NCBI GenBank assembly: GCA_018238625.1
Contig: JABCSY010000111.1
Coordinates: forward strand, 1 to 12,610
Source: Promethearchaeota archaeon
GTDB lineage: Archaea; Asgardarchaeota; Lokiarchaeia; Sigyniarchaeales; SOKP01
Direction: 5' to 3'
DNA: 12,610 nt
This document shows positions 633 through 12,610 of this stretch, piece after piece; within the stretch, counting starts at the first letter, position 1, and every line of letters begins with the position of its first letter. The translations under genes were made by a program, and so were the position numbers. The notes below the pieces were generated by a model that was not told where the DNA came from, did not search any database, and worked only from the letters and a program-made list of their open reading frames with translations.

Positions 633-857
633 GTGAATATTCATGATCATCCAAGATTCCTTAAATTCGTTGTTGTGCTAGCAAAAAACATTTGTTTAGT
701 GAAAAAATGCCTATATGCAAAATTCCGCGAATTTTATAAAGAACTTGAAATAAACTATCATGGTTTAGAAGGAGAGCTGGATAACCTATTAGAACCAACG
801 CCAAGAGATAAGATTAAAAAATCAATAAAACAACTCGAGGAGCGATTAACCACATGA
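633..857 (+). CDS. small hypothetical protein, translationally coupled to the downstream gene; start uncertain
   Basis: The TGA stop overlaps the next ATG (ATGA at 854-857). The C-terminal half is helical and protein-like. The called GTG lies inside a GAGGTGA Shine-Dalgarno-like motif that points instead to an out-of-frame ATG at 643. Confidence 0.55.
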   Translation: MNIHDHPRFLKFVVVLAKNICLVKKCLYAKFREFYKELEINYHGLEGELDNLLEPTPRDKIKKSIKQLEERLTT

Positions 858-3463
858 AAGCATACACCAACGTGTCACGAAAAACCGTGGGAGAAGACCG
901 CATAGCAATCTGCCCAAACTTCGGGTGTGAGTTTATGACAAGAGTTAAACCTCTTAAATTGAGATTTTTTGGTTTTGGGAAGTATCCTAAATGCAAAAAA
1001 CATCACATTCCTTTAGTTTATGTCGATCAAAGGATCGGTGATTTCGTGGATGCTGCATTATCATGCTTGTTTGATAAAGCTGGACTACCTCCCCGTGAAT
1101 TAATTGAAAGCGTGAAATCAAGATTCCTTGATGAAATGACCTCATTTGTAGAAGGATGGGTATATTGCATAACAGTTGGAAGGGGAGTACCCATAGTTTC
1201 ACGTTATATGGATACAATTTCTAATGCTTATCTCAAGCAATTAACCAAGAAACAAATTAAAGCAATAAAAAAAGGAGATAATTCTAAATCAAATCTCGTG
1301 AATAAAGCAATTAAGGATGGAATGGATGAAATAACTATCCAATATACAAGAATTCTCAAGCATCTGAGAGCTCATTCCGAAATCCTTTCTAAACCTGAAA
1401 ATCTTAAACCACTTTCAAAACATCTTCAAAAATATTTGAATGAATGGCAAAAGAACATGTTGAAGAGTAACGAGTTATTAATTATGTCAGAAAACAATCG
1501 TGAAATGGGGTTAAAAGAGATGAAGCATAGTTATGATCAAATCCTAAACATTGGTACGTGTCGCTGTCTTCTCGGATTAAATCCTGAAACTAAAGGAAAT
1601 AAGAAAGCAAAGGTATCTGCCTTCGACAGGTTTTCCGCATATCATGAATTCTTTAAGGAAGATTTAACTTCAAAATTTACTAAATCTGATGTTTTTAACT
1701 TACTGAGAATGAATAACAATTATCAGAAAGACATGGACGAAAAATCTGAAAACTTTGAAACACTTAAAATTAATGAAGAATACAGGGAATCTTTCAATAA
1801 TGAATTAAAAAATGAGTTCGTAAATTCCATGAAACAAAGAGAAGGGCAACCAAGAGAAATTAAAAAAATCGATATGATAGCTCTAGAACATTATAAAGAA
1901 TTTATTGAGATTCATTTTTCAAATGCAAAGAATACCAAATTCATATCAAAGGGTTTTCTTGAGAATCTAGTAAAACAAATTAAATCATGTCAAGGAGTTC
2001 TGCCAGATAATAGAATTGCCGAGATGCTTTATGGTACATCTAATGGTTCTGAAGTTTTAGCTTTTGCTACTTTAAAGTCTAATAAATATAAAAGACCTAA
2101 CTCTTTAATAGATGAAAATATTTTAGATAATTGGTTTTTTAATCTAAAACAAGAGTTTTCAAGTAATTATATTGTTTTTTTTAATTTAATACTCGATTAC
2201 AAATTAATGCGTGCTGAAAAACGTGTTTTTAGCTTAGTGAAGAAATGGAATTCCTATTGTAGTAAAATCAATTCTTTAGGACTTAATATGGAGACGAATG
2301 TATTTGATTATTTAGAATCTGTGCTAACAGGGACTCTTATAGAAAACTTATCATTTGAACTTTCTTGTAAGTGTTCCAACCATGAAAAATTTAGTGTAGT
2401 TTACAAACATTTATATCGCGCTGTATGCCCTCTATGTTCAAGAATTAAAAAGTCCCATTCATATCAGGATTTTGTTAGAGAAGCGGAGTTGAGGAATGCA
2501 AGATTTAAATTTACTGAAACTGAATTTATAGCTCGAATAAATCAGGAGTTAAAAAAATCTCGTGATAAACAGCAAAAAGTCTCTGAAATATTATTCCCAT
2601 TTATTTGTAACAGACACGGGGAATTTTATATTAGTATGGAGCGCATTAAAGATTATGATAACTGGTGTGCTGAATGTTATCACGATAGTCATAGATTAAC
2701 GAGTGAACAAATTATCGCTCGAGGTGATAAATATAATTTTAATCTGGAAACCCCGTTGAGTTATATTGAGAAATTAAAACAGCCATCCAGAGAAGTTTAT
2801 CTATGGTCTTGTAAATATCATCCAAGTTTTAGATTTAAATCTAAACCTGATGAGTTTAATTTAGATCTAAAATCTTGTGAAATATGTTCGGGAGGAAAAA
2901 TAACAAACGAACGGATAATGCGCTATTTACTTTCAAGATTATTTCATAAAAATTTTGGTGAAAAACCAACATCATTATATGAAATTCTTCCTTTTGATAA
3001 GGTTGATAATTTAGTGCCTAGCGATTATAAAACATTAAGGAGTTATAAGCGAATGCATTTTGACGCTTTTGCTTATATTAGTATAAAGATAGGAGTGCTA
3101 AGTGTCGCAGGGGAATATTGGGATCGTGAACATTCATCTTTAGAAGAATATGTTGATAGATTCAAGCATAGAACTCCTCGAAATGGATCTCTCGTCAATG
3201 ATTATCAGCATTTAAAATCTAGTGATAATTTTAAACAAAACCTAAAAAACAATGGATTTATCGATATTTATATCATAGTTGATCATACAATACGACGTGA
3301 TAACTATCTAAAATTCATAATTTCCGAGTTTGAGCAACAAGTAAGGAAATTATTTAAAATAAATAATTATCGTCTTAGAAATATTCCCCATTGTAATTGG
3401 AGAGATCTTAAACAAATCGACAAGCTAAGACAAACTTATGGTGATATAATAAGATTTCTGTAA
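854..3463 (+). CDS. large multidomain protein: N-terminal Cys/His domain, three CxxH...CxxC zinc-ribbon repeats, C-terminal Vsr/EDxHD-like (PD-(D/E)xK superfamily) endonuclease domain
   Basis: 869-aa ORF. N-terminal CPNFGC...CKKH. Repeats CSNH..CPLC (2372-2437), CNRH..CAEC (2606-2677) and CKYH..CEIC (2810-2887). These are followed by NER...MHFDAF...AGEYWDREH...DNFK, matching the E/D/ExxxxH/D order of Vsr-like nucleases. The CDS is clear; the function is inferred from motifs. Confidence 0.7.
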   Translation: MKAYTNVSRKTVGEDRIAICPNFGCEFMTRVKPLKLRFFGFGKYPKCKKHHIPLVYVDQRIGDFVDAALSCLFDKAGLPPRELIESVKSRFLDEMTSFVEGWVYCITVGRGVPIVSRYMDTISNAYLKQLTKKQIKAIKKGDNSKSNLVNKAIKDGMDEITIQYTRILKHLRAHSEILSKPENLKPLSKHLQKYLNEWQKNMLKSNELLIMSENNREMGLKEMKHSYDQILNIGTCRCLLGLNPETKGNKKAKVSAFDRFSAYHEFFKEDLTSKFTKSDVFNLLRMNNNYQKDMDEKSENFETLKINEEYRESFNNELKNEFVNSMKQREGQPREIKKIDMIALEHYKEFIEIHFSNAKNTKFISKGFLENLVKQIKSCQGVLPDNRIAEMLYGTSNGSEVLAFATLKSNKYKRPNSLIDENILDNWFFNLKQEFSSNYIVFFNLILDYKLMRAEKRVFSLVKKWNSYCSKINSLGLNMETNVFDYLESVLTGTLIENLSFELSCKCSNHEKFSVVYKHLYRAVCPLCSRIKKSHSYQDFVREAELRNARFKFTETEFIARINQELKKSRDKQQKVSEILFPFICNRHGEFYISMERIKDYDNWCAECYHDSHRLTSEQIIARGDKYNFNLETPLSYIEKLKQPSREVYLWSCKYHPSFRFKSKPDEFNLDLKSCEICSGGKITNERIMRYLLSRLFHKNFGEKPTSLYEILPFDKVDNLVPSDYKTLRSYKRMHFDAFAYISIKIGVLSVAGEYWDREHSSLEEYVDRFKHRTPRNGSLVNDYQHLKSSDNFKQNLKNNGFIDIYIIVDHTIRRDNYLKFIISEFEQQVRKLFKINNYRLRNIPHCNWRDLKQIDKLRQTYGDIIRFL

Positions 3464-3468
3464 TAATC

Positions 3469-3476
3469 CTTTTTTC
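3469..3476 (+). terminator. oligo-T archaeal-type terminator candidate for the 869-aa gene
   Basis: T-tract starts a few bases after the stop codon at 3463. Confidence 0.35.
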
Positions 3477-3527
3477 TATTCTTTTACCGATTTAAGCTTG
3501 ATTAATAATAGATTCTTGTAATTTTAT

Positions 3528-3538
3528 AAAAAAAAAAA
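3528..3538 (-). terminator. oligo-T terminator candidate for acr3
   Basis: A11 on the + strand (T11 on the - strand), about 18 nt downstream of the stop of the predicted second exon (3556-3558). Confidence 0.45.
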
Positions 3539-3555
3539 TTTAAAATTTGGATTCT

Positions 3556-4645
3556 TTAATCTGTCCTATCTCCTGAATTCTCCCAAAAACCTCTTTTCTT
3601 TAGAAATCTTCCGAAGTAGACTATTGACAGCATTACTGGAACTTCCCAGAATGACCCTTTCATAGGAAAACTAAGAATCGTATAGTCCCATGGTAGTCCC
3701 TAATGCAGCAATAGAGCCAATTCCATACATAGCTATCGCAGTAGCAATCGCAATTTCAAAATGACTTGAAGACCCTATTATTACTGTAATTACTGCTTCC
3801 TCATATTTCAACTTAAAGAGTTTTGTAATTATTATATTATAACCAACAACAATTACAAATCCCACTAAAAGAGGTATAGAAACTAATAACAATAGATCGG
3901 GATTATTTATCAAGACCGTTCCATTTAGCGAAAAAAGAACAATTAGAGTCGTTAGTAGTGCTACGATCGAGATTTTTCCTACAATTGGCCTATAAACATC
4001 GTTAAACCAAGCATCTCCCTTAATTGAGATAATAATTTTTTTACTTACTATACCCAATAATAACGGTACTCCTATAAATAACACCAAAGAAATCAGCAAA
4101 AGCAAGATATCTATTGGAATATTTTTAATGCCGGTTAATAATGCGACTAAAGGGACGTAACCGAATATGATAGTTATTGTATTTAAACTGGTATTAATTA
4201 CATTTTGTTCTTGATTCCCTCTTCCCATATAACCCCAGATTAGGACCATAGCAGTACATGGGCTTGAACTTAGAAGGATAATTGCAACTATAAGCTGTTC
4301 ATATCCAGGCAAAAAAATGTTTGCCATTGCTAACCCTACGAAAGGAGCAACGACCCAATTAGATATAAGGGTCAATACAATTGGTTTTGGATTTTTACCT
4401 AATTTTTTCAACTCAGAAAATTGAAGATTCAACATAGCGGGATACATCATTAGGAATAAACATATTCCAATGGGAATAGAAATTCCTCCTATTTGTAAAG
4501 AATTAATAGCTTCGCTAATTTCAGGGATGAGCTGAGAAAGAATAATTCCCACAATTATACATAATGCAACCCATAACGGAAGAAATTTTTCAAAATAACT
4601 AATTTTTTTTGATTCTTCTTCTTCTTTTGGTTCTTCTGATTTCAT
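3556..4645 (-). CDS. acr3: Acr3-family arsenite efflux permease, split gene: exon 1 4645-3682, exon 2 3650-3556; 352 aa after removing the 31-nt insertion
   Basis: Acr3 motifs: FEKFLPLWV, GICLFLMMYP, SNWVVAP, SPCTAMV (catalytic Cys) and GSSSHFEIAIA. The ORF track stops at ...GTTMGLYDS*. The missing last helix FWEVPVMLSIVYFGRFLKKRGFWENSGDRTD* is encoded immediately downstream in another frame. Exon lengths 964 + 95 = 1059 nt = 353 codons. Confidence 0.93.
3651..3681 (-). other. predicted 31-nt bulge-helix-bulge (BHB) intron in acr3 pre-mRNA
   Basis: Intron sequence ACGAUUCUUAGUUUUCCUAUGAAAGGGUCAU. Central 4-bp helix GACU (3687-3684) / GGUC (3656-3653). 3-nt bulges AU|A (3683-3681) and AU|U (3652-3650). 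Flanked by an exon-exon helix and an intron hairpin. Cleavage after the second base of each bulge gives GGA CUA U|UC UGG GAA = G-L-F-W-E. Confidence 0.8.
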
Positions 4646-4745
4646 TTCTAATTCATTCTTTTAAGATTGAATAATTATTATTTGATAAAAGTCATACTTC
4701 AAATTTAAGGTTGTCGATTTGAGTGTAAAGAAAACTTAAAATGTT

Positions 4746-4780
4746 ATAGATTTATATTTATCGATTTACTTTTATATACA
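4746..4780. promoter_or_regulatory. divergent acr3/arsR promoter region with imperfect palindrome (possible ArsR operator) and TATA-like element
   Basis: ATAGATTTATATTTATCGAT (4746-4765) is self-complementary at 14 of 20 positions, and TTTATATA lies at 4771-4778. Both are weak signals given the AT-rich background. Confidence 0.3.
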
Positions 4781-4823
4781 AGATAAAAGTATTTTGTAAA
4801 AAATATAAAAAGGAATTAAGTTT

Positions 4824-5216
4824 ATGAAAGAAAAACGCGAATCAGAAATTAAGATAATGCTATGTGCTTGTAAAGAATGCTCTAACTCAAATGGTTTCTT
4901 TAATAATTTACTAAAATTGGGGAAAGGATTAGAAGAAAATAAAACATTTGATGCAATTGAGAAATTCACATTAGCTTTAGCGTCCAAAGAAAGGTTGATC
5001 ATTATTAATGCTTTAAAAGAACAAGATAGATGTGTATGCGAATTAGAAACTATATTAGATAAGTCTCAATCGACAATATCCCATCATTTAAGAAAGCTTG
5101 TGGTAGCAGGATTAATACAAGGATATAAAAAACAAAAATTTACGTATTATCATCTATTTAAGGAAGAACTTGTTAAAAATTTAGATATTTTAAACCAGAC
5201 ACTACATGTTATTTAA
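4824..5216 (+). CDS. arsR: ArsR/SmtB-family metalloregulatory transcriptional repressor
   Basis: ALASKERLIIINAL...RCVCELETILDKSQSTISHHLRKLVVAGLI...FTYY is the ArsR winged-HTH with the CVCEL metal(loid)-binding box. There is an extra N-terminal CACKEC. The gene is divergent from acr3. Confidence 0.92.
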   Translation: MKEKRESEIKIMLCACKECSNSNGFFNNLLKLGKGLEENKTFDAIEKFTLALASKERLIIINALKEQDRCVCELETILDKSQSTISHHLRKLVVAGLIQGYKKQKFTYYHLFKEELVKNLDILNQTLHVI

Positions 5217-5290
5217 TTTAACATCCTATGTTTTGCATAATGAAAGCCTAAGGTTATGCTAACTCTTAATAAGTTATAAATTCGGATATT

Positions 5291-5467
5291 TTAATGTATT
5301 AAATTATTGGAATTTTTTGAAAGTGGGTACAATATTGGTATCTCGGAAGCTGTAAGAAAATCGAATATATTGTGCATGTTATAAAATAAGAATCCGATTA
5401 ACCATGCTAGAACGAACTGTTCTCCTGTAATTATTGAAAATGGCCCTAAGTCTAGAATAACTTTTTT
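5291..5467 (-). pseudogene. 3' remnant of a membrane-bound metal-dependent hydrolase (YdjM/DUF457-like)
   Basis: 58-codon open frame with no 5' start: KKVILDLGPFSIITGEQFVLAWLIGFLFYNMHNIFDFLTASEIPILYPLSKNSNNLIH*. It matches the family's C-terminal G...HxxxDxxT...PxxxPxS pattern. Confidence 0.45.
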
Positions 5468-5982: not shown

Positions 5983-7272
5983 ATGAAATTCTCTATGGAA
6001 CGTTCAGATAACGAATTGAAATTCTCTAAATACTATCGATTAATTACGCCAAATGAATTTGATATTGATCGAGAAGATATTTTCTATCGCGATAAATACA
6101 ATGAAGTCATTAATTATTTGAAAATAATGTTGACAAACCACGAGGAGTCAATTATCCAGAGTTATGCTAAATTTATACAACCAAAAGGCACTCTTCTAAT
6201 TAACATAAATTCTGGAACTGATATTACTGATTATTTAAAATTAATTTCAAATAATTATTATTTGGATTTTATTGAATTAAATCAAGAGGAAATCGTTAAA
6301 TCCCCTGAAGATTTTTTTAACAACTTTATATCCATTCTAGAAAATATTGTTAGGAATAAGGAAATATTAGTAAAAAATGATATCGAAAATGGCAAAGTAT
6401 CCCCGATAAATGAATATAAAAAAGAAGAAAGCAAAATAAAAAGATTGTTGGTGATTAATCAACATAATTTTTCTGAGGTTTTATTAAAAGAAAAAAATCT
6501 ATTGGAACACTTTATAGTTTCTTTTAAAGAAAAGAAGTCACTAATAAAAGACGGCTTAATTTTAATCTGGATCAATAATAAATTTCAAGAAATCGAAACA
6601 AATTCAAGATTGATTTTTGAAGCTTTTGATTTGTTCATAAAAATCCCTTTGATAGATAAAATCGAAAGAGAGACTATTTTAAGAAACTTTTCAGAAAAAA
6701 ATCCGAAAATCGTTTTTGATATTAAAACCTTAGTAGAATACACCAGTAATTGGGAAGTTAAAGACTTAAACCGATTATTGAGAGTGGGCATATTTAAACA
6801 CTTCCTTAATTCGGAGTTAAACGAATCAAGCAACGAAATTACAGATATATTAATCAACTTAATAGAATCTGGCGAATTTATACCCTCATTTTCCAAAACA
6901 ATTACTGAAAGGGAAGTTATATACGGAGGGACTAACGACAAACAAAATTTGATTTCTAATATTTCAACGAAAGAAAGAAATGAGATAATAAATACTACTA
7001 ATATCAAAAGTTTTATAGACCAGATAAAAGAAGAGAGGGTTTCAGATTTTATACTAAGCCAATTATACGAAAGTGCCGCTTCTAAGAATTATAGTGAGGT
7101 TTTACTTATAATAGACAAGTTGAATAAGCAAGAACCGCTAGAAGAGAACGATAGAAAGATTTTGGCTAAATATTCTTTCGTTTTAAACGATAGCCCCAAG
7201 ATGGCTCAAATTAATTTAGAAAAGGCTAAAAAGCGTATTGATAATTTAAAACGAGCATTTGGAAAACAATAA
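5983..7272 (+). CDS. degenerate AAA+ domain protein (probable pseudo-ATPase, classical CDC48/Vps4/PAN-like fold)
   Basis: The AAA scaffold is recognisable: QPKGTLLI(NINSGTDIT)...FIELNQEEI...RLLVIN...FDLFIKIPLIDKIERETIL...DIKTLVEYTSNWEVKDLNRLL. Walker A GxxGxGKT, Walker B DE and the arginine finger are all absent. Confidence 0.7.
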   Translation: MKFSMERSDNELKFSKYYRLITPNEFDIDREDIFYRDKYNEVINYLKIMLTNHEESIIQSYAKFIQPKGTLLININSGTDITDYLKLISNNYYLDFIELNQEEIVKSPEDFFNNFISILENIVRNKEILVKNDIENGKVSPINEYKKEESKIKRLLVINQHNFSEVLLKEKNLLEHFIVSFKEKKSLIKDGLILIWINNKFQEIETNSRLIFEAFDLFIKIPLIDKIERETILRNFSEKNPKIVFDIKTLVEYTSNWEVKDLNRLLRVGIFKHFLNSELNESSNEITDILINLIESGEFIPSFSKTITEREVIYGGTNDKQNLISNISTKERNEIINTTNIKSFIDQIKEERVSDFILSQLYESAASKNYSEVLLIIDKLNKQEPLEENDRKILAKYSFVLNDSPKMAQINLEKAKKRIDNLKRAFGKQ

Positions 7273-7289: not shown

Positions 7290-10200
7290 ACGGCTGTTTC
7301 TTCTGTAAATAAAGCTAAGGAAAACGATAAAAGTCAAGCGATAAAAAATAGTGTTTTTATCCGTAAAGTTATTTTAGAGAATTTCTTATCTTTTCAAAGA
7401 GACGAAGTGGATTTCTTGGCTCTGAAAGGCCAGGATGTACCTCGCTTTATTTTAATAGTAGGTCCGAATTGGAGCGGGAAAACCTCAGTTTTTCAAGCAA
7501 TTAAATTTGCTTTAGGTAGTAACGAAAGAGACGAGCGTTATAAGAAATGGTCTGATTTTATAAGAGATGGGCAGGATCATGCTATGGTGGAGCTTCATGT
7601 TCAATACCATAATGAAGTAGTTAAAATAAGAAGAACGGTAATAAGAGGAAAGTCTCCATCTTTTGAGATTCAGTTAGAAAATGATAAAAATTTCAAAAAG
7701 GTTCACGCAATTGAAATTCAAAAACTTGTGTCAAAGTTAGAAATTAATCCAGATAATCAATTTGCATTTGTAAGCCAGGGCAAAATCGATACTATTAAAA
7801 GTTTAAAACCGATCGAACTCTGTTCCTTTTTAGAAGAGGGAATTGGGCTTAAAGGTTTACGAGAGGAGATTTTACAACAAAAGAATAGCGTATATACATT
7901 AAACACGGAGTTTAAATCTTTAATTACCCGGAAAAATTCTTTAAATATAAACCTCGACTTCTTAATGCCAAAATTAGAACGTTTAGATGAGAAAAATAAA
8001 TTACTAAAAATTAGAAAAAAGTATAACGATGAACTATTGTGGGCAAATAAGAGCATGCTTCAGAAAGACATTGAAGTTCTCGAGTTAAACGTCAAAAAAA
8101 GCCAAGATCAGATAAATATAATTACCAATGAAATCGACAAGTATCGAAATTTAATCAAAGAAAAAGAGAAAAAGATTTCTGAAATAGATAGCAACCTTAT
8201 TAGTTCATCAAAAAAAGTAGGAGAATTAAATTACAGAAAAAAGGAATTAGTTAATAAAATAGATGCGTGGCAAAATGAAAAAATAAGAGCAAAGCAAGAA
8301 TTGGACGTCTTATCTGAAAAAATCTCTGAATATGAAAAAAAAATAGATAAGCTAGAAAAGCACAGGAAAAACATAACAAGTGAGATCGACATAGTTAAAA
8401 AGAAGAAAATTTCAATTAAAAGCAAAATTGATAAATTAATTAAAGAACAAAATGAAATTACGCTAAAGATTAAAGAAAATCAAGATTTTTTAGAAAAATA
8501 TAACCAGTTAGCCTATGAAAAGGAAAATTATGTCAGGAAAATCCAAGACAACGAAAACAATATTAAAAATATTAAAAGAGACATCAATGATATTTTTCAG
8601 AGTTTGACCGACATAGATTACAAACTAGAAAAGAATAGGTGGTTTTTAGAAAATCCTACAAACGATTTGTTGACTCAACTAGATAAGGACCTTAAGGAAG
8701 TAACCGTAAACTTATTTAAATTAATATCTGAAGTGGAACAGTTAGAATACGAAAAAACAAAAAAGATTACAAAATTCAAACTACTTCAAACTGCGTTAAG
8801 AGAACGCAAGATTGTTCTTTCAGCTAATATCAACATTCTTAAAGAGGAAATTAAGAAAAGAGAACTTGCCGATAGAGTTAAAGGCCCAATAATTGAATAT
8901 TTAAAATACGACGACGAGTTAAGCTATGCTATTGAATCAGTTTTGGGAGAAAGGTTACTTAATAGCTTTATTGTGAACGATTGGGATACTCTAAATTTAA
9001 TAGAGAAATTAAAAAAGAAATATAATGCTTATTGCAACATATACATACCTAAGGATGTCAGAGTTGCTCCATTACCAAAGATTATGGCGCAGGGCGTAAT
9101 TGGCTATTTAGCGGAATTAATTAAAGTTGTTGGCGGCGATTTAGACGTTCAAAAAATTATTTATTCAAAAATTAAAAATTGTGTTGTTGTCAGGGATTAC
9201 ACCTCCGCAAAAGAGCTCTATAGAAGCCATAATTTCAAAGGTAAGTGTGTGACTTTAAAAGGAAAACAAATTATATCATACAAATACGCATACGAAAGTC
9301 CATTTATAAGACGGTTAAAAGGGCTATTAAGTCCAGGAACTCAAAAAGAACAATCAAACCTTTTAGAAAAAGAAATTGAATCGCTAAACGAGAAGAATTT
9401 AGAGTTAAAAGTAAAGCAATCACAGTTAGATAAGGTACAAGGTGAGATTTTCAGGAAAAAAGAATCGTTTAACGACCTTTTATACAACTTCAAACAAAAA
9501 GAAAGGCTGACTTCAAAAAAAAATCAGTTTTATAATTTAATTTATACATTAGAACAAAATATTACCGAGACAAACGAGAAAATTGAAGACATAGTAAAAA
9601 AAATAAACGAGTTAGAATCACAAAAAGAACCCGAGTTTTTTAAATGGAACGAAAGGATAAAGGAAATACCTATCGAACTAAACAATCTAAACAATGATTT
9701 AAACAAATGGGATACGAAATTAGATGGTAATCTAGGAACACTAAAAGATATTGACGTAAGGATAAACCCCCATAAAAACGAATTAAGAATATTAAAAAAA
9801 GATTTCGATTTAAAAAAAGTAAATTTCAAAAACTCGGATAAAAAAGCATTTGAAATTTATAGAAAATTAGAAACTGTTGATGAAGAGATTAGCAAGGTTA
9901 ACGCTAATATCTTAAATTTACAAAACCAAAAAATTGTATTTCAAAAAGATAAGAGCGAAATCGATGAAAAGCACATTCAAATTAAATTAAGCTTGGAGCA
10001 AGAAAGTTTTAAGCGATCTTCTATAAAACTTGAATTGGGAGCGAAGAAAAACGATTTAGAACGTATCAATTCTGAAATAGGTCCCTTAATTTCAGAAAAA
10101 AGAATGGAGATTCGCCCAATAGAGGAAATTGATCAGGACATTCTAATAATCGCCAAAAAGCTTTTAAATTATTTAGATGTTAATGATTCGATTTTAGTAG

Positions 10201-10784
10201 AAAAAGAACAGATTTTAACTGGGCTAAAGGAAATCACTAAAAATCAGAAAGACATAGAAAGAGACATTAAAGCTGCGATTAAAACTGAAAATAAACTGGA
10301 AGAAACTTACTACAACAAATTTAAATTGGTATTAAAAGACTTAAATTTAAAAATTAATCAAAAATTTATTTCCGCAAACATTAAAGCGTATTGTACTCTG
10401 GATTTAATGGGAAATTTTGAAGCATTGGGAATAGATATTAAAGCCGCCATCTCTAAGGATAAATTAAAATCTTGCACCGCTTTAAGCGGAGGTCAAATTT
10501 CGATGATTTCTATTAGCTTAATTTTATCGCTTCAGGAGATCAAACCCTCTCCATTATGTATGTTTGACGAGGCAGGAATGTTTTTAGACGAAAAGAATTC
10601 CGAAGCTTCGTATCAAATGATAAGAACAACGATTGAGCATAATGCTATTCAAATGTTAATGTTTCTACCAAAATCTTCAAATCCATTATATTTACTGGCT
10701 GATAAGTTAATTGGAGTCGCCAGAGTTGGCAAAAACGAAGTATCGACTATTTTTAATCCTAAAATCGTGAAAGAAAGCAAATGA
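7290..10784 (+). CDS. smc: SMC5/6-type SMC ATPase (true start lies upstream of the called GTG at 7407)
   Basis: In-frame upstream strand FIRKVILENFLSF (7356-7394). Walker A GPNWSGKTS, Q-loop NPDNQFAFVSQGKI, long coiled coils and a central hinge (VKGPIIEYL...AIESVLG). Signature LSGGQ, Walker B/D-loop PSPLCMFDEAGMFLD, and switch region QMLMFLPK with Pro in place of His, as in SMC5/6. Confidence 0.9.
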   Translation, partial: TAVSSVNKAKENDKSQAIKNSVFIRKVILENFLSFQRDEVDFLALKGQDVPRFILIVGPNWSGKTSVFQAIKFALGSNERDERYKKWSDFIRDGQDHAMVELHVQYHNEVVKIRRTVIRGKSPSFEIQLENDKNFKKVHAIEIQKLVSKLEINPDNQFAFVSQGKIDTIKSLKPIELCSFLEEGIGLKGLREEILQQKNSVYTLNTEFKSLITRKNSLNINLDFLMPKLERLDEKNKLLKIRKKYNDELLWANKSMLQKDIEVLELNVKKSQDQINIITNEIDKYRNLIKEKEKKISEIDSNLISSSKKVGELNYRKKELVNKIDAWQNEKIRAKQELDVLSEKISEYEKKIDKLEKHRKNITSEIDIVKKKKISIKSKIDKLIKEQNEITLKIKENQDFLEKYNQLAYEKENYVRKIQDNENNIKNIKRDINDIFQSLTDIDYKLEKNRWFLENPTNDLLTQLDKDLKEVTVNLFKLISEVEQLEYEKTKKITKFKLLQTALRERKIVLSANINILKEEIKKRELADRVKGPIIEYLKYDDELSYAIESVLGERLLNSFIVNDWDTLNLIEKLKKKYNAYCNIYIPKDVRVAPLPKIMAQGVIGYLAELIKVVGGDLDVQKIIYSKIKNCVVVRDYTSAKELYRSHNFKGKCVTLKGKQIISYKYAYESPFIRRLKGLLSPGTQKEQSNLLEKEIESLNEKNLELKVKQSQLDKVQGEIFRKKESFNDLLYNFKQKERLTSKKNQFYNLIYTLEQNITETNEKIEDIVKKINELESQKEPEFFKWNERIKEIPIELNNLNNDLNKWDTKLDGNLGTLKDIDVRINPHKNELRILKKDFDLKKVNFKNSDKKAFEIYRKLETVDEEISKVNANILNLQNQKIVFQKDKSEIDEKHIQIKLSLEQESFKRSSIKLELGAKKNDLERINSEIGPLISEKRMEIRPIEEIDQDILIIAKKLLNYLDVNDSILVEKEQILTGLKEITKNQKDIERDIKAAIKTENKLEETYYNKFKLVLKDLNLKINQKFISANIKAYCTLDLMGNFEALGIDIKAAISKDKLKSCTALSGGQISMISISLILSLQEIKPSPLCMFDEAGMFLDEKNSEASYQMIRTTIEHNAIQMLMFLPKSSNPLYLLADKLIGVARVGKNEVSTIFNPKIVKESK

Positions 10785-11431
10785 CAGAAAATATAGATTT
10801 ATCAGAGGAATTAAATAAAAAGATCGAAATTATTAAGGATGACGTTCTTTCAGGCAAAATTTCCTTGTTAGAATTAGAATTGAACCCTCTATTTCATGAT
10901 CTTAAAGATTCACTTAGCATTTTCAACATCGAAAATTATTCTGTAACCTACAAAAATGCGTGCGAATTACTCAACGAAAAATTCGAGGAACTAAAGAAAT
11001 TACTCAGTTCTTTAAATATTGACGAAAAATTCTTTGAATATATGAGGACTCGCCCTGAGGATGAGGAGATATTCGATATTTTTAAAGGATGTTGGAGGAA
11101 AGTTTTCTACATGGATGGAATGTCCATAAATTTCTTGGAGTACGCTTCAGATCGTTTTTGTAAAGAAAGAACGGTGGATTTAGAGATTAAGCATTTGAAA
11201 AAAGGAAAAATAGACGACCAATTTTTATTAGAAATTCCAAAATATAAATTTACTGAAAAAATGACATCATTCTTTAATAAAATTAAAGAAAAACTCCCAT
11301 GTTATTTTGAAGATGTTTTTGATGATGGGCTAGATCAAATGGAAGTCTACGAATATTTTGTGTACTTATTGCACCTTTTACAGCTAGGCAAAATAAAATA
11401 TGAAAAAAATACAAATACATTATATATTTGA
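10781..11431 (+). CDS. kleisin subunit (ScpA/Nse4-like)
   Basis: ATGA overlap with smc. The C-terminal winged-helix pattern FEDVF...VYEYFVYLLHLLQLGKIKYE is typical of kleisin C-termini. Confidence 0.7.
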   Translation: MTENIDLSEELNKKIEIIKDDVLSGKISLLELELNPLFHDLKDSLSIFNIENYSVTYKNACELLNEKFEELKKLLSSLNIDEKFFEYMRTRPEDEEIFDIFKGCWRKVFYMDGMSINFLEYASDRFCKERTVDLEIKHLKKGKIDDQFLLEIPKYKFTEKMTSFFNKIKEKLPCYFEDVFDDGLDQMEVYEYFVYLLHLLQLGKIKYEKNTNTLYI

Positions 11432-11444
11432 GGTTACAAAAAAA

Positions 11445-11960
11445 ATGAATGAAATTTCAATCCTAATGCATTTATTAAGTAGAAAGAAAAGTTTATATCA
11501 AATAGGAGCTACAAAAGAAGATATTTTAGAACAATTAAATGCGAATCATAAGAACAAATCTATTTATTTCCAAAACCTAATTACTGGACTATCAACTTAT
11601 CTTGAACCACTAGGTTTTCAGATTAGGTTTAATCCTTTAGATTCTCATTGGTTTTTAAATTATGATCCTGAAATTTCGGAATTGATTTCAGCTAATCCCT
11701 TCGAAGGAAAGCCGAGTTTGGCAGCAACGCTATTATGTACATTAACTTTATGCCTTAAAAATTCGGGTGTTTCTTCAATTCATGAGATTAGTAAATTAAG
11801 ACGCAAGAAAGATGTAAATGAAGATTTAAAAGCATTAGAAAAAAAAGGATATCTTTTAATTGATAAAAATAGCGGCCATGTATCATTGACTCCTTTGATA
11901 GGCTATCAATTAGATATGCATAAGGTGTTTGTAAAATTAGCCTTAAAATTAAAAGAATAA
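11445..11960 (+). CDS. KITE-family tandem winged-helix subunit (Nse1/Nse3/ScpB-like)
   Basis: Follows the kleisin. GAGGT at 11430-11434 precedes ATG 11445, preferred over 11400. Two winged-helix-like halves: FQNLITGLSTYLEPLGFQIRFNPLDSHWFL and DLKALEKKGYLLID...VSLTPL. Confidence 0.68.
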   Translation: MNEISILMHLLSRKKSLYQIGATKEDILEQLNANHKNKSIYFQNLITGLSTYLEPLGFQIRFNPLDSHWFLNYDPEISELISANPFEGKPSLAATLLCTLTLCLKNSGVSSIHEISKLRRKKDVNEDLKALEKKGYLLIDKNSGHVSLTPLIGYQLDMHKVFVKLALKLKE

Positions 11961-11984: not shown

Positions 11985-12610
11985 TTAACGAGATGTTGTT
12001 ATCTCTAAAATCATCTCGGCAACATGGTTATTGAATTCCTCAACCTCTTCAAAATTAGAAACAGTTTCACCGCAAGTTATAAAATAATCAGAAACCGATA
12101 TTTTTCTTTTATTAAAGAAGTTAGTAATCTTGCTTTTAATATCTTCTAAACCTTTATCTCTGTCTCCCTCAAGTAAATCAATTTTGTTTATACAAACGGA
12201 TATCTTTTCAGGAAAGAACCTAACATCTGTGAAAAATTCAAATTGTCTTTCAAGTTTACGATCCAAAGAAAATACAGCTATAATCTGAGTTGCGATACGA
12301 GAGATAGTAATTATTCCCATTTTAACAACTGCCCTTTGCCGATCTCCTCCTGGGGCGAAGATGGTATGTGCTTTTCCCGATTTATCTTCTCTAAAAACAA
12401 TTCTATTTGGATGAATTGTTTTAGTTTCTTTTTGATTAAGAGAATCTTCTTTATCCCCTCTGGGCACTGTTGCTTCTCCAGAAAAATCAGTCTTTATCAC
12501 TGTACATTTCTGTCCTCCTTTAACTTTTTCTATGTCACCAACTTTTAAATATCTTACGAAAAGACGGAGAATACTAGTTTTTCCGACAGATATATCACCT
12601 AAAAGCCCAA
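11985..12610 (-). CDS. Ras-superfamily-like small GTPase, 5' end outside the window
   Basis: The frame stays open beyond the called GTG at 12500 up to the window edge: GLLGDISVGKTSILRLF (G1 P-loop). Further motifs: TKTI (G2), IFAPGG (atypical G3), IIAVFS, INKID (G4) and ITCG (G5). Confidence 0.85.
   Translation of the reverse strand, partial: GLLGDISVGKTSILRLFVRYLKVGDIEKVKGGQKCTVIKTDFSGEATVPRGDKEDSLNQKETKTIHPNRIVFREDKSGKAHTIFAPGGDRQRAVVKMGIITISRIATQIIAVFSLDRKLERQFEFFTDVRFFPEKISVCINKIDLLEGDRDKGLEDIKSKITNFFNKRKISVSDYFITCGETVSNFEEVEEFNNHVAEMILEITTSR

Follow-up and report, generated by a model that had tools for sequence, protein, structure and literature searches.

The pre-mRNA of the cbf5 gene of Crenarchaeota is said to contain an intron, reported by Watanabe in 2002 and by Yoshinari in 2006. 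The subject of the present analysis is a 31-nucleotide (nt) insert in the acr3 gene of a 12,610-nt stretch of Promethearchaeota archaeon DNA (contig JABCSY010000111.1 of assembly GCA_018238625.1; hereafter the window), which is very likely a bulge-helix-bulge (tRNA-type) mRNA intron in the acr3 pre-mRNA. [quoted passage not shown]

According to the cbf5 study (PMC2738675), the introns of Desulfurococcales and Sulfolobales resemble that of acr3 in being short, in interrupting coding sequence, and in having a (relaxed) bulge-helix-bulge at their borders; the predicted cuts, placed between the second and third residues of each bulge (Yokobori 2009), likewise give the correct frame; the hosts have a hetero-oligomeric EndA; and the distribution among relatives is patchy, with gain and loss. 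The acr3 case differs in that the gene encodes a membrane transporter of an accessory resistance operon rather than an RNA-modification enzyme and comes from the Asgard phylum, that its family has two separate intron positions and an intron linked to a distinct exon-2 variant, and that its splicing is predicted from sequence rather than taken from cDNA. The cbf5 gene of the window's own genome is uninterrupted. The HVO_1309 transcript of Haloferax volcanii is likewise an mRNA that has a bulge-helix-bulge and is acted on by the archaeal splicing endonuclease (PMC7714728, PMC10485636), but its intron lies in the 5' untranslated region and its enzyme is homodimeric, whereas the acr3 intron interrupts coding sequence and would have to be removed to restore the frame.

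Asgard archaea themselves are reported to have an (alpha-beta)2 EndA with an L1 insert, tied to a broad substrate range (PMC5829648), and tRNA genes heavily interrupted by non-canonical introns (preprint 10.64898/2026.10.13.758758). These tRNA introns share their motif, size range and enzyme set with acr3, the difference being that the acr3 substrate is an mRNA, so that the portions of the motif lying in the exons have to code for protein as well. In the main text of the preprint, the words 'mRNA' and 'cbf5' are absent and 'protein-coding' occurs once, for genes neighbouring tRNAs. The preliminary description of this locus, made from the DNA alone, had known of no case in acr3 or in Asgard mRNAs, and full-text literature searches (subscription journals and supplements excluded) likewise found no such intron in acr3 or in Asgard protein genes. 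An acr3 intron would extend the phenomenon to the lineage nearest eukaryotes and to an accessory, horizontally mobile gene.

The acr3 gene lies on the minus strand, where its open reading frame (ORF; 3671..4645, 324 amino acids, aa) matches the Pfam family SBF (3.7e-38) and the NCBIfam acr3 model TIGR00832 (268.6 bits over profile positions 2-312 of 327, just below the curated cut-off of 282.8 bits); an intron-less relative, P0001, 95% identical, covers positions 2-325 of the same model. The ORF closes with ...AALGTTMGLYDS (...TTMGLYDS) followed by TAG, and another frame resumes with WEVPVMLSIVYFGRFLKKRGFWENSGDRTD (the last helix, WEVPVML...) and runs to a TAA at 3556-3558. The sequence and the homologue alignment agree with the preliminary description that a 31-nt insert at 3651-3681 brings an in-frame TAG (3671-3673) into the last-helix motif and shifts the frame by one; from the sequence alone its boundary is ambiguous by 1 nt (3651-3681 or 3652-3682). 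With 3651-3681 removed, 321 and 31 residues join into an Acr3 of 352 aa in which GLFWEVPVML is restored. The parts of the gene are as follows.

3682..4645, minus strand: acr3 exon 1, 321 codons and the first base of a Phe codon, including the SPCTAM Cys and HFE Glu motifs.
3651..3681, minus strand: putative bulge-helix-bulge intron of 31 nt, placed by alignment and fold.
3556..3650, minus strand: acr3 exon 2, comprising the final two bases of the Phe codon, then 30 codons (WEVPVML...GDRTD) and TAA, encoding the last transmembrane helix and the tail.

The SPCTAM Cys (C130) and the HFE Glu (E297), which presumably have a role in transport, are invariant in an alignment of 25 sequences. Exon 2 aligns with the last helix of the homologues, and the gene belongs to the Acr3 family of arsenite efflux transporters with that helix included; exon 2 alone matched nothing in NCBIfam because it is too short. 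The best protein homologues are Asgard Acr3 proteins (Promethearchaeota or Lokiarchaeota where named) and the loci nearest to the window belong to Promethearchaeota metagenome-assembled genomes (MAGs), identifying the host as an Asgard archaeon, as had been suspected.

The insert recurs in independent assemblies, which speaks for its being real. In the homologue alignment, 20 of 24 proteins are uninterrupted (...TTMGLFWEVP..., the intron-less reading that the preliminary description had proposed to look for) and the other four stop at GLYDS or GLYYS like the window's ORF; all four are 318 aa long (four of the five 318-aa homologues listed were aligned), indicating that gene callers truncate intron-bearing acr3 at the same site. 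Among 80 related genome loci, six have a 31-nt insert at the same nucleotide, 73 have none, and one could not be scored. A pattern scan of metagenome contigs returned 88 stretches, of which 13 are acr3 genes with the insert (11 of 31 nt, one of 32 and one of 34), 27 are intron-less acr3 and 48 are unrelated; the 27 were rejected as insert carriers, having been caught through the upstream ATGGG, and locus L092 was rejected as a threonyl-tRNA synthetase gene matched by chance. With a stricter pattern, eight of 400 Asgard genomes match, including that of the window, all in one family and three genera; leaving out the window's genome, seven of the 134 genomes of that family match.

Several records in these surveys have peculiarities of their own. 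The intron-less acr3 of L024 (RDOE01000006.1) has a deletion and a frameshift in the last helix (…FWEVPVMLKSWILEIKSD), which probably means that the copy is damaged or the assembly faulty. The intron of L006, a record labelled Odinarchaeota, is identical to that of the window; the label may be a misassignment, because all intron-bearing genomes of the 400-genome search fall in one family. Six MAGs labelled Anaerolineae or Chloroflexia (L044, L046, L048, L049, L051 and L062) have an acr3 66-70% identical to the Asgard one, which could reflect gene transfer between groups or a binning error.

The transcript around the insert can adopt all of the RNA elements that the preliminary description had listed, namely an exon helix of 11 pairs, a GACU/GGUC central helix, AUA and AUU bulges, and a hairpin.

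3688..3700, minus strand: 5' strand of the outer exon-exon helix (h), 97.6% of whose cells are paired in 15 alleles.
3638..3649, minus strand: 3' strand of the outer helix, forming 11 pairs with 3688-3700.
3684..3687, minus strand: 5' strand of the central helix (H), GACU, contributed by the exon-1 codons for Gly and Leu; all 15 alleles have it paired.
3653..3656, minus strand: 3' strand of the central helix, GGUC, within the intron, 4 base pairs.
3681..3683, minus strand: 5' bulge, AUA, with a predicted cut between 3682 and 3681.
3650..3652, minus strand: 3' bulge, AUU, with a predicted cut between 3651 and 3650.
3657..3680, minus strand: intron hairpin (h'), from the fold and the comparison of alleles.

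Both 3-nt bulges sit 3' of their helix strand, as in tRNA introns. An Rfam search of the window matched no family. Cutting after the second base of each bulge, as the preliminary description had noted, gives exactly the junction of the intron-less genes that the protein alignment demands, and hence the 352-aa product. A geometry at least as good (threshold: four of four central pairs, at least three outer pairs and at least one inner pair) occurs for a 31-nt insert at 5,374 of 8,548,324 arbitrary places in the same genome (6.3e-4), or with a chance of about 1.3e-3 if two equivalent boundary placements are allowed.

Because the insert is shaped like an EndA signal, the message is very probably spliced. 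Exons 1 and 2 would pair mutually and with the intron, forming the outer helix, the central 4-base-pair helix between the bulges, and the hairpin; a heteromeric (alpha-beta)2 EndA would cut each bulge after its second base; and RtcB would join the exons, regenerating the Phe codon and the last-helix frame of a 352-aa Acr3, while an unspliced message would give a 324-aa protein without the last transmembrane helix. We infer that this cleavage and ligation take place in the cell.

The genome encodes the corresponding enzymes. Two EndA paralogues of 200 and 201 aa, 35% identical to each other, are found at C58:7294-7518 and C7:25627-25875 (97.7 and 73.8 bits); against TIGR00324 they score 117 and 88.5 bits, both over the endA cut-off, and the second also matches the beta-subunit model. 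RtcB is encoded at C24:7978-9285 (E 4e-167) with no internal stops. In this genome, whose completeness is rated at 97.9%, ARAGORN detects only 19 tRNA genes, of which 11 contain introns; non-canonical or multiple introns probably conceal the majority of its tRNA genes. The ARAGORN counts fit the heavily interrupted Asgard tRNA genes described in the preprint (10.64898/2026.10.13.758758).

Comparison of alleles indicates that the fold is maintained. The 20 insert alleles (18 of 31 nt, with L151 of 32 nt and L117 of 34 nt) represent 15 distinct sequence contexts, and all 15 have four of four central-helix pairs, 3-nt bulges and at least three contiguous outer pairs, so that the 3-4-3 geometry, proposed earlier as a check, is conserved and accompanied by compensatory changes. 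In the hairpin, at least two pairs adjoin the bulge in 10 of the 15. Overall, 93.3% of alignment cells pair, compared with 31.5-60.9% when the partners are slid by one to three columns. In L151 an A-U pair of the central helix has become G-C, the exon side being a synonymous Gly change; a pair-keeping change of U-G to U-A occurs in two alleles; outer pair 6-68 is AU in seven alleles, GU in seven and UA in one; pair 25-50, next to the bulge, is UA in seven, GC in three and unpaired in five; and, in other alleles, changes at two hairpin positions mend a U.U mismatch. RNAalifold, run blind to the proposed structure, recovers both helices, outer and central, as well as the hairpin.

The exons bear marks of both protein coding and RNA structure. 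Exon 2 is open to its stop in all 20 alleles, and among 16 distinct cores of intron-bearing alleles the proportions of synonymous and nonsynonymous differences are 0.62 (pS) and 0.10 (pN), a pN/pS of 0.16; exon 2 is under purifying selection and must therefore be translated in its own frame despite the frame break. Synonymous positions in the exons agree with the fold: GACT spanning the codons for Gly and Leu is found in 13 of 14 intron-bearing but 6 of 92 intron-less contexts, the Leu codon CTA in 14 of 14 versus 9 of 92, the Phe codon TTC in 14 of 14 versus 43 of 92, and all three free outer pairs are formed in 10 of 14 versus 7 of 92; the Fisher tests on these counts take no account of kinship, which is to be counted with the objections below. 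At this site the same nucleotides would have to serve both the coding of protein and a signal for RNA processing.

A number of observations weigh against the intron. The 63-nt stretch has a minimum free energy of -13.9 kcal/mol (z = 0.27), and 114 of 200 shuffled sequences do as well or better; for the central helix the predicted probability is just 0.04-0.47, varying with the length of the flanks; and the constrained bulge-helix-bulge fold lies 1.9-3.6 kcal/mol above the minimum. The motif of the window allele is relaxed, with just one intron-helix pair abutting the 5' bulge before the hairpin. Covariation amounts to three to four double-change pairs among related alleles, and the values observed are matched or exceeded in 1 to 28 of 500 shuffles; the events being few and the alleles related, they are taken as support rather than proof.

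The RNA data and the remainder of the genome add to these objections. No exon joint was found among the contigs of four runs. The sole RNA-library contig that reaches the site runs from Gly-Leu straight into Phe-Trp-Glu but spells Gly and Leu with other codons and is about 93% identical; it comes from a relative lacking the intron and says nothing on splicing of the insert. A genome scan for other split genes, which the preliminary description had suggested, was carried out blind for bulge-helix-bulge motifs whose removal fuses open frames, and in 2.21 of 4.29 Mb it gave 4124 real candidates against 4072-4182 for decoys with slid partners, hence no excess. A subset chosen post hoc gave 209 versus 153-168, an excess that was gone after a codon-usage filter; the window's own exon 2 scores low by this filter, so the scan cannot tell if other genes carry introns. 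The last of these objections is that in 14 of 15 distinct alleles, that of the window included, the insert leaves the frame of exon 2 open, making a single shift before the TAG formally possible.

The open frame speaks for translational recoding, either a programmed +1 frameshift producing an Acr3 with about 10 extra residues or hopping (bypass) producing one with none, but recoding is very unlikely here. By frameshift, the 34-nt insert of L117 has no route and the 32-nt insert of L151 needs the opposite direction, and the ten additional residues would interrupt the last membrane helix, a place at which 73 of the 79 genome loci scored contain no extra residues. In programmed bypass of the T4 gene 60 type, matching take-off and landing codons flank the skipped stretch; here CUA, the codon at which take-off would occur, is matched by no landing codon ahead of the UUC where translation would resume. 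Variation in the insert preserves RNA pairs and not codons, and a second insert in the same gene, taken up below, would require readthrough of one or two in-frame stops.

That acr3 is dead or dying, the insert being a neutral scar or a small inactivating insertion with a coincidental fold, might account for the truncated literal reading with its score below the NCBIfam cut-off, for the unremarkable folding energy, and for the patchy presence of the insert on the Acr3 tree. Such decay is extremely unlikely, given that both exons are intact in all 20 alleles, as the preliminary description had claimed for the window's own, with exon-1 proteins differing by up to about 30%; that exon 2 has the pN/pS and the pS given above; that the fold is kept across changes of sequence and length; and that this acr3, the only copy in the 4.29-Mb genome, lies next to arsR. 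The neighbouring gene marks the locus as an arsenic-resistance unit.

4824..5216, plus strand: ArsR-family regulator, upstream of acr3 and divergent from it (HTH_5, 4.3e-17; NF033788, 6.9e-19).

The distribution of the putative intron among acr3 alleles indicates repeated change. On a maximum-likelihood tree built quickly from 89 exon-1 proteins (a further row, the 90th, was omitted as too short), it needs 10 state changes, at least five to six of them required by branches with good support. The row closest to the window, L119, is 97% identical in protein and has no intron; at the DNA level the two share 92% identity over exon 1, with a drop to 66% over exon 2. An exon-2 tail GFWE... is found in 19 of 20 intron alleles and 9 of 100 intron-less ones. 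The C-terminal tail of the intron alleles is acidic (GFWE.SE...), and intron-less alleles that are almost the same in exon 1 end in GFWKS. The tie between the intron and a distinct exon-2 tail suggests that a 3' cassette of intron and exon 2 may have been exchanged between acr3 alleles by recombination. The natural presence/absence polymorphism between alleles 97% identical in protein is ideal for experiments.

The same two features, the at least five to six state changes on the exon-1 tree and the association with a particular exon-2 tail, would also be expected of a small mobile DNA element (like a miniature inverted-repeat transposable element, or the remnant of a homing cassette) that stays in the RNA or is cut by EndA merely to destroy the message. 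Very little likelihood attaches to such an element: a search of the 4.29-Mb genome for further copies of the insert found none beyond chance words, the insert always occupies the same nucleotide of the same gene, and there is no endonuclease gene inside it or recognisably beside it. Moreover, selection on exon 2 requires the two exons to be joined and translated.

A second insert of 33 nt lies between ...VLVWG and MAKGNQEQN of acr3 in L006, L087, L151 and L160 (at about 2010-2060 in L006, corresponding to about 4215-4230 of the window, whose allele does not have it). It is present in four of 15 scored alleles that have the C-terminal intron and in none of 75 intron-less alleles. Being a multiple of three it keeps the frame, but stops lie in that frame, one in some alleles and two in others. 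The predicted fold has a central helix of GGGG with CCCU or CUCU (four of four pairs), a 5' bulge AUA and four to five inner pairs, and cuts placed by the rule given above regenerate WG(W/Y)M. In two of these four a longer helix can take in the 3' bulge, and the motif is therefore relaxed.

With two independent positions in acr3, it is possible, if rather doubtful, that tRNA-type mini-introns are a recurrent feature of Asgard protein-coding genes spread by recombination. If so, the prokaryotes most closely related to eukaryotes can already live with protein genes in pieces, whose RNA has to be cut and rejoined, and splicing could gate the expression of accessory genes such as the arsenite pump.

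Elsewhere in the window, an ORF of 869 aa at 854-3463 on the plus strand is convergent with acr3 and has no Pfam match. The ORFs at 5983-7272, 10781-11431 and 11400-11960 (plus strand) and 11985-12608 (minus strand), of 429, 216, 186 and 207 aa, belong to no Pfam family and flank a gene for an SMC-like ATPase at 7407-10784. Positions 2138-5197 of the window are 96% identical to locus L178 of the same genus, and positions 2174-5258 are 96% identical to L004.

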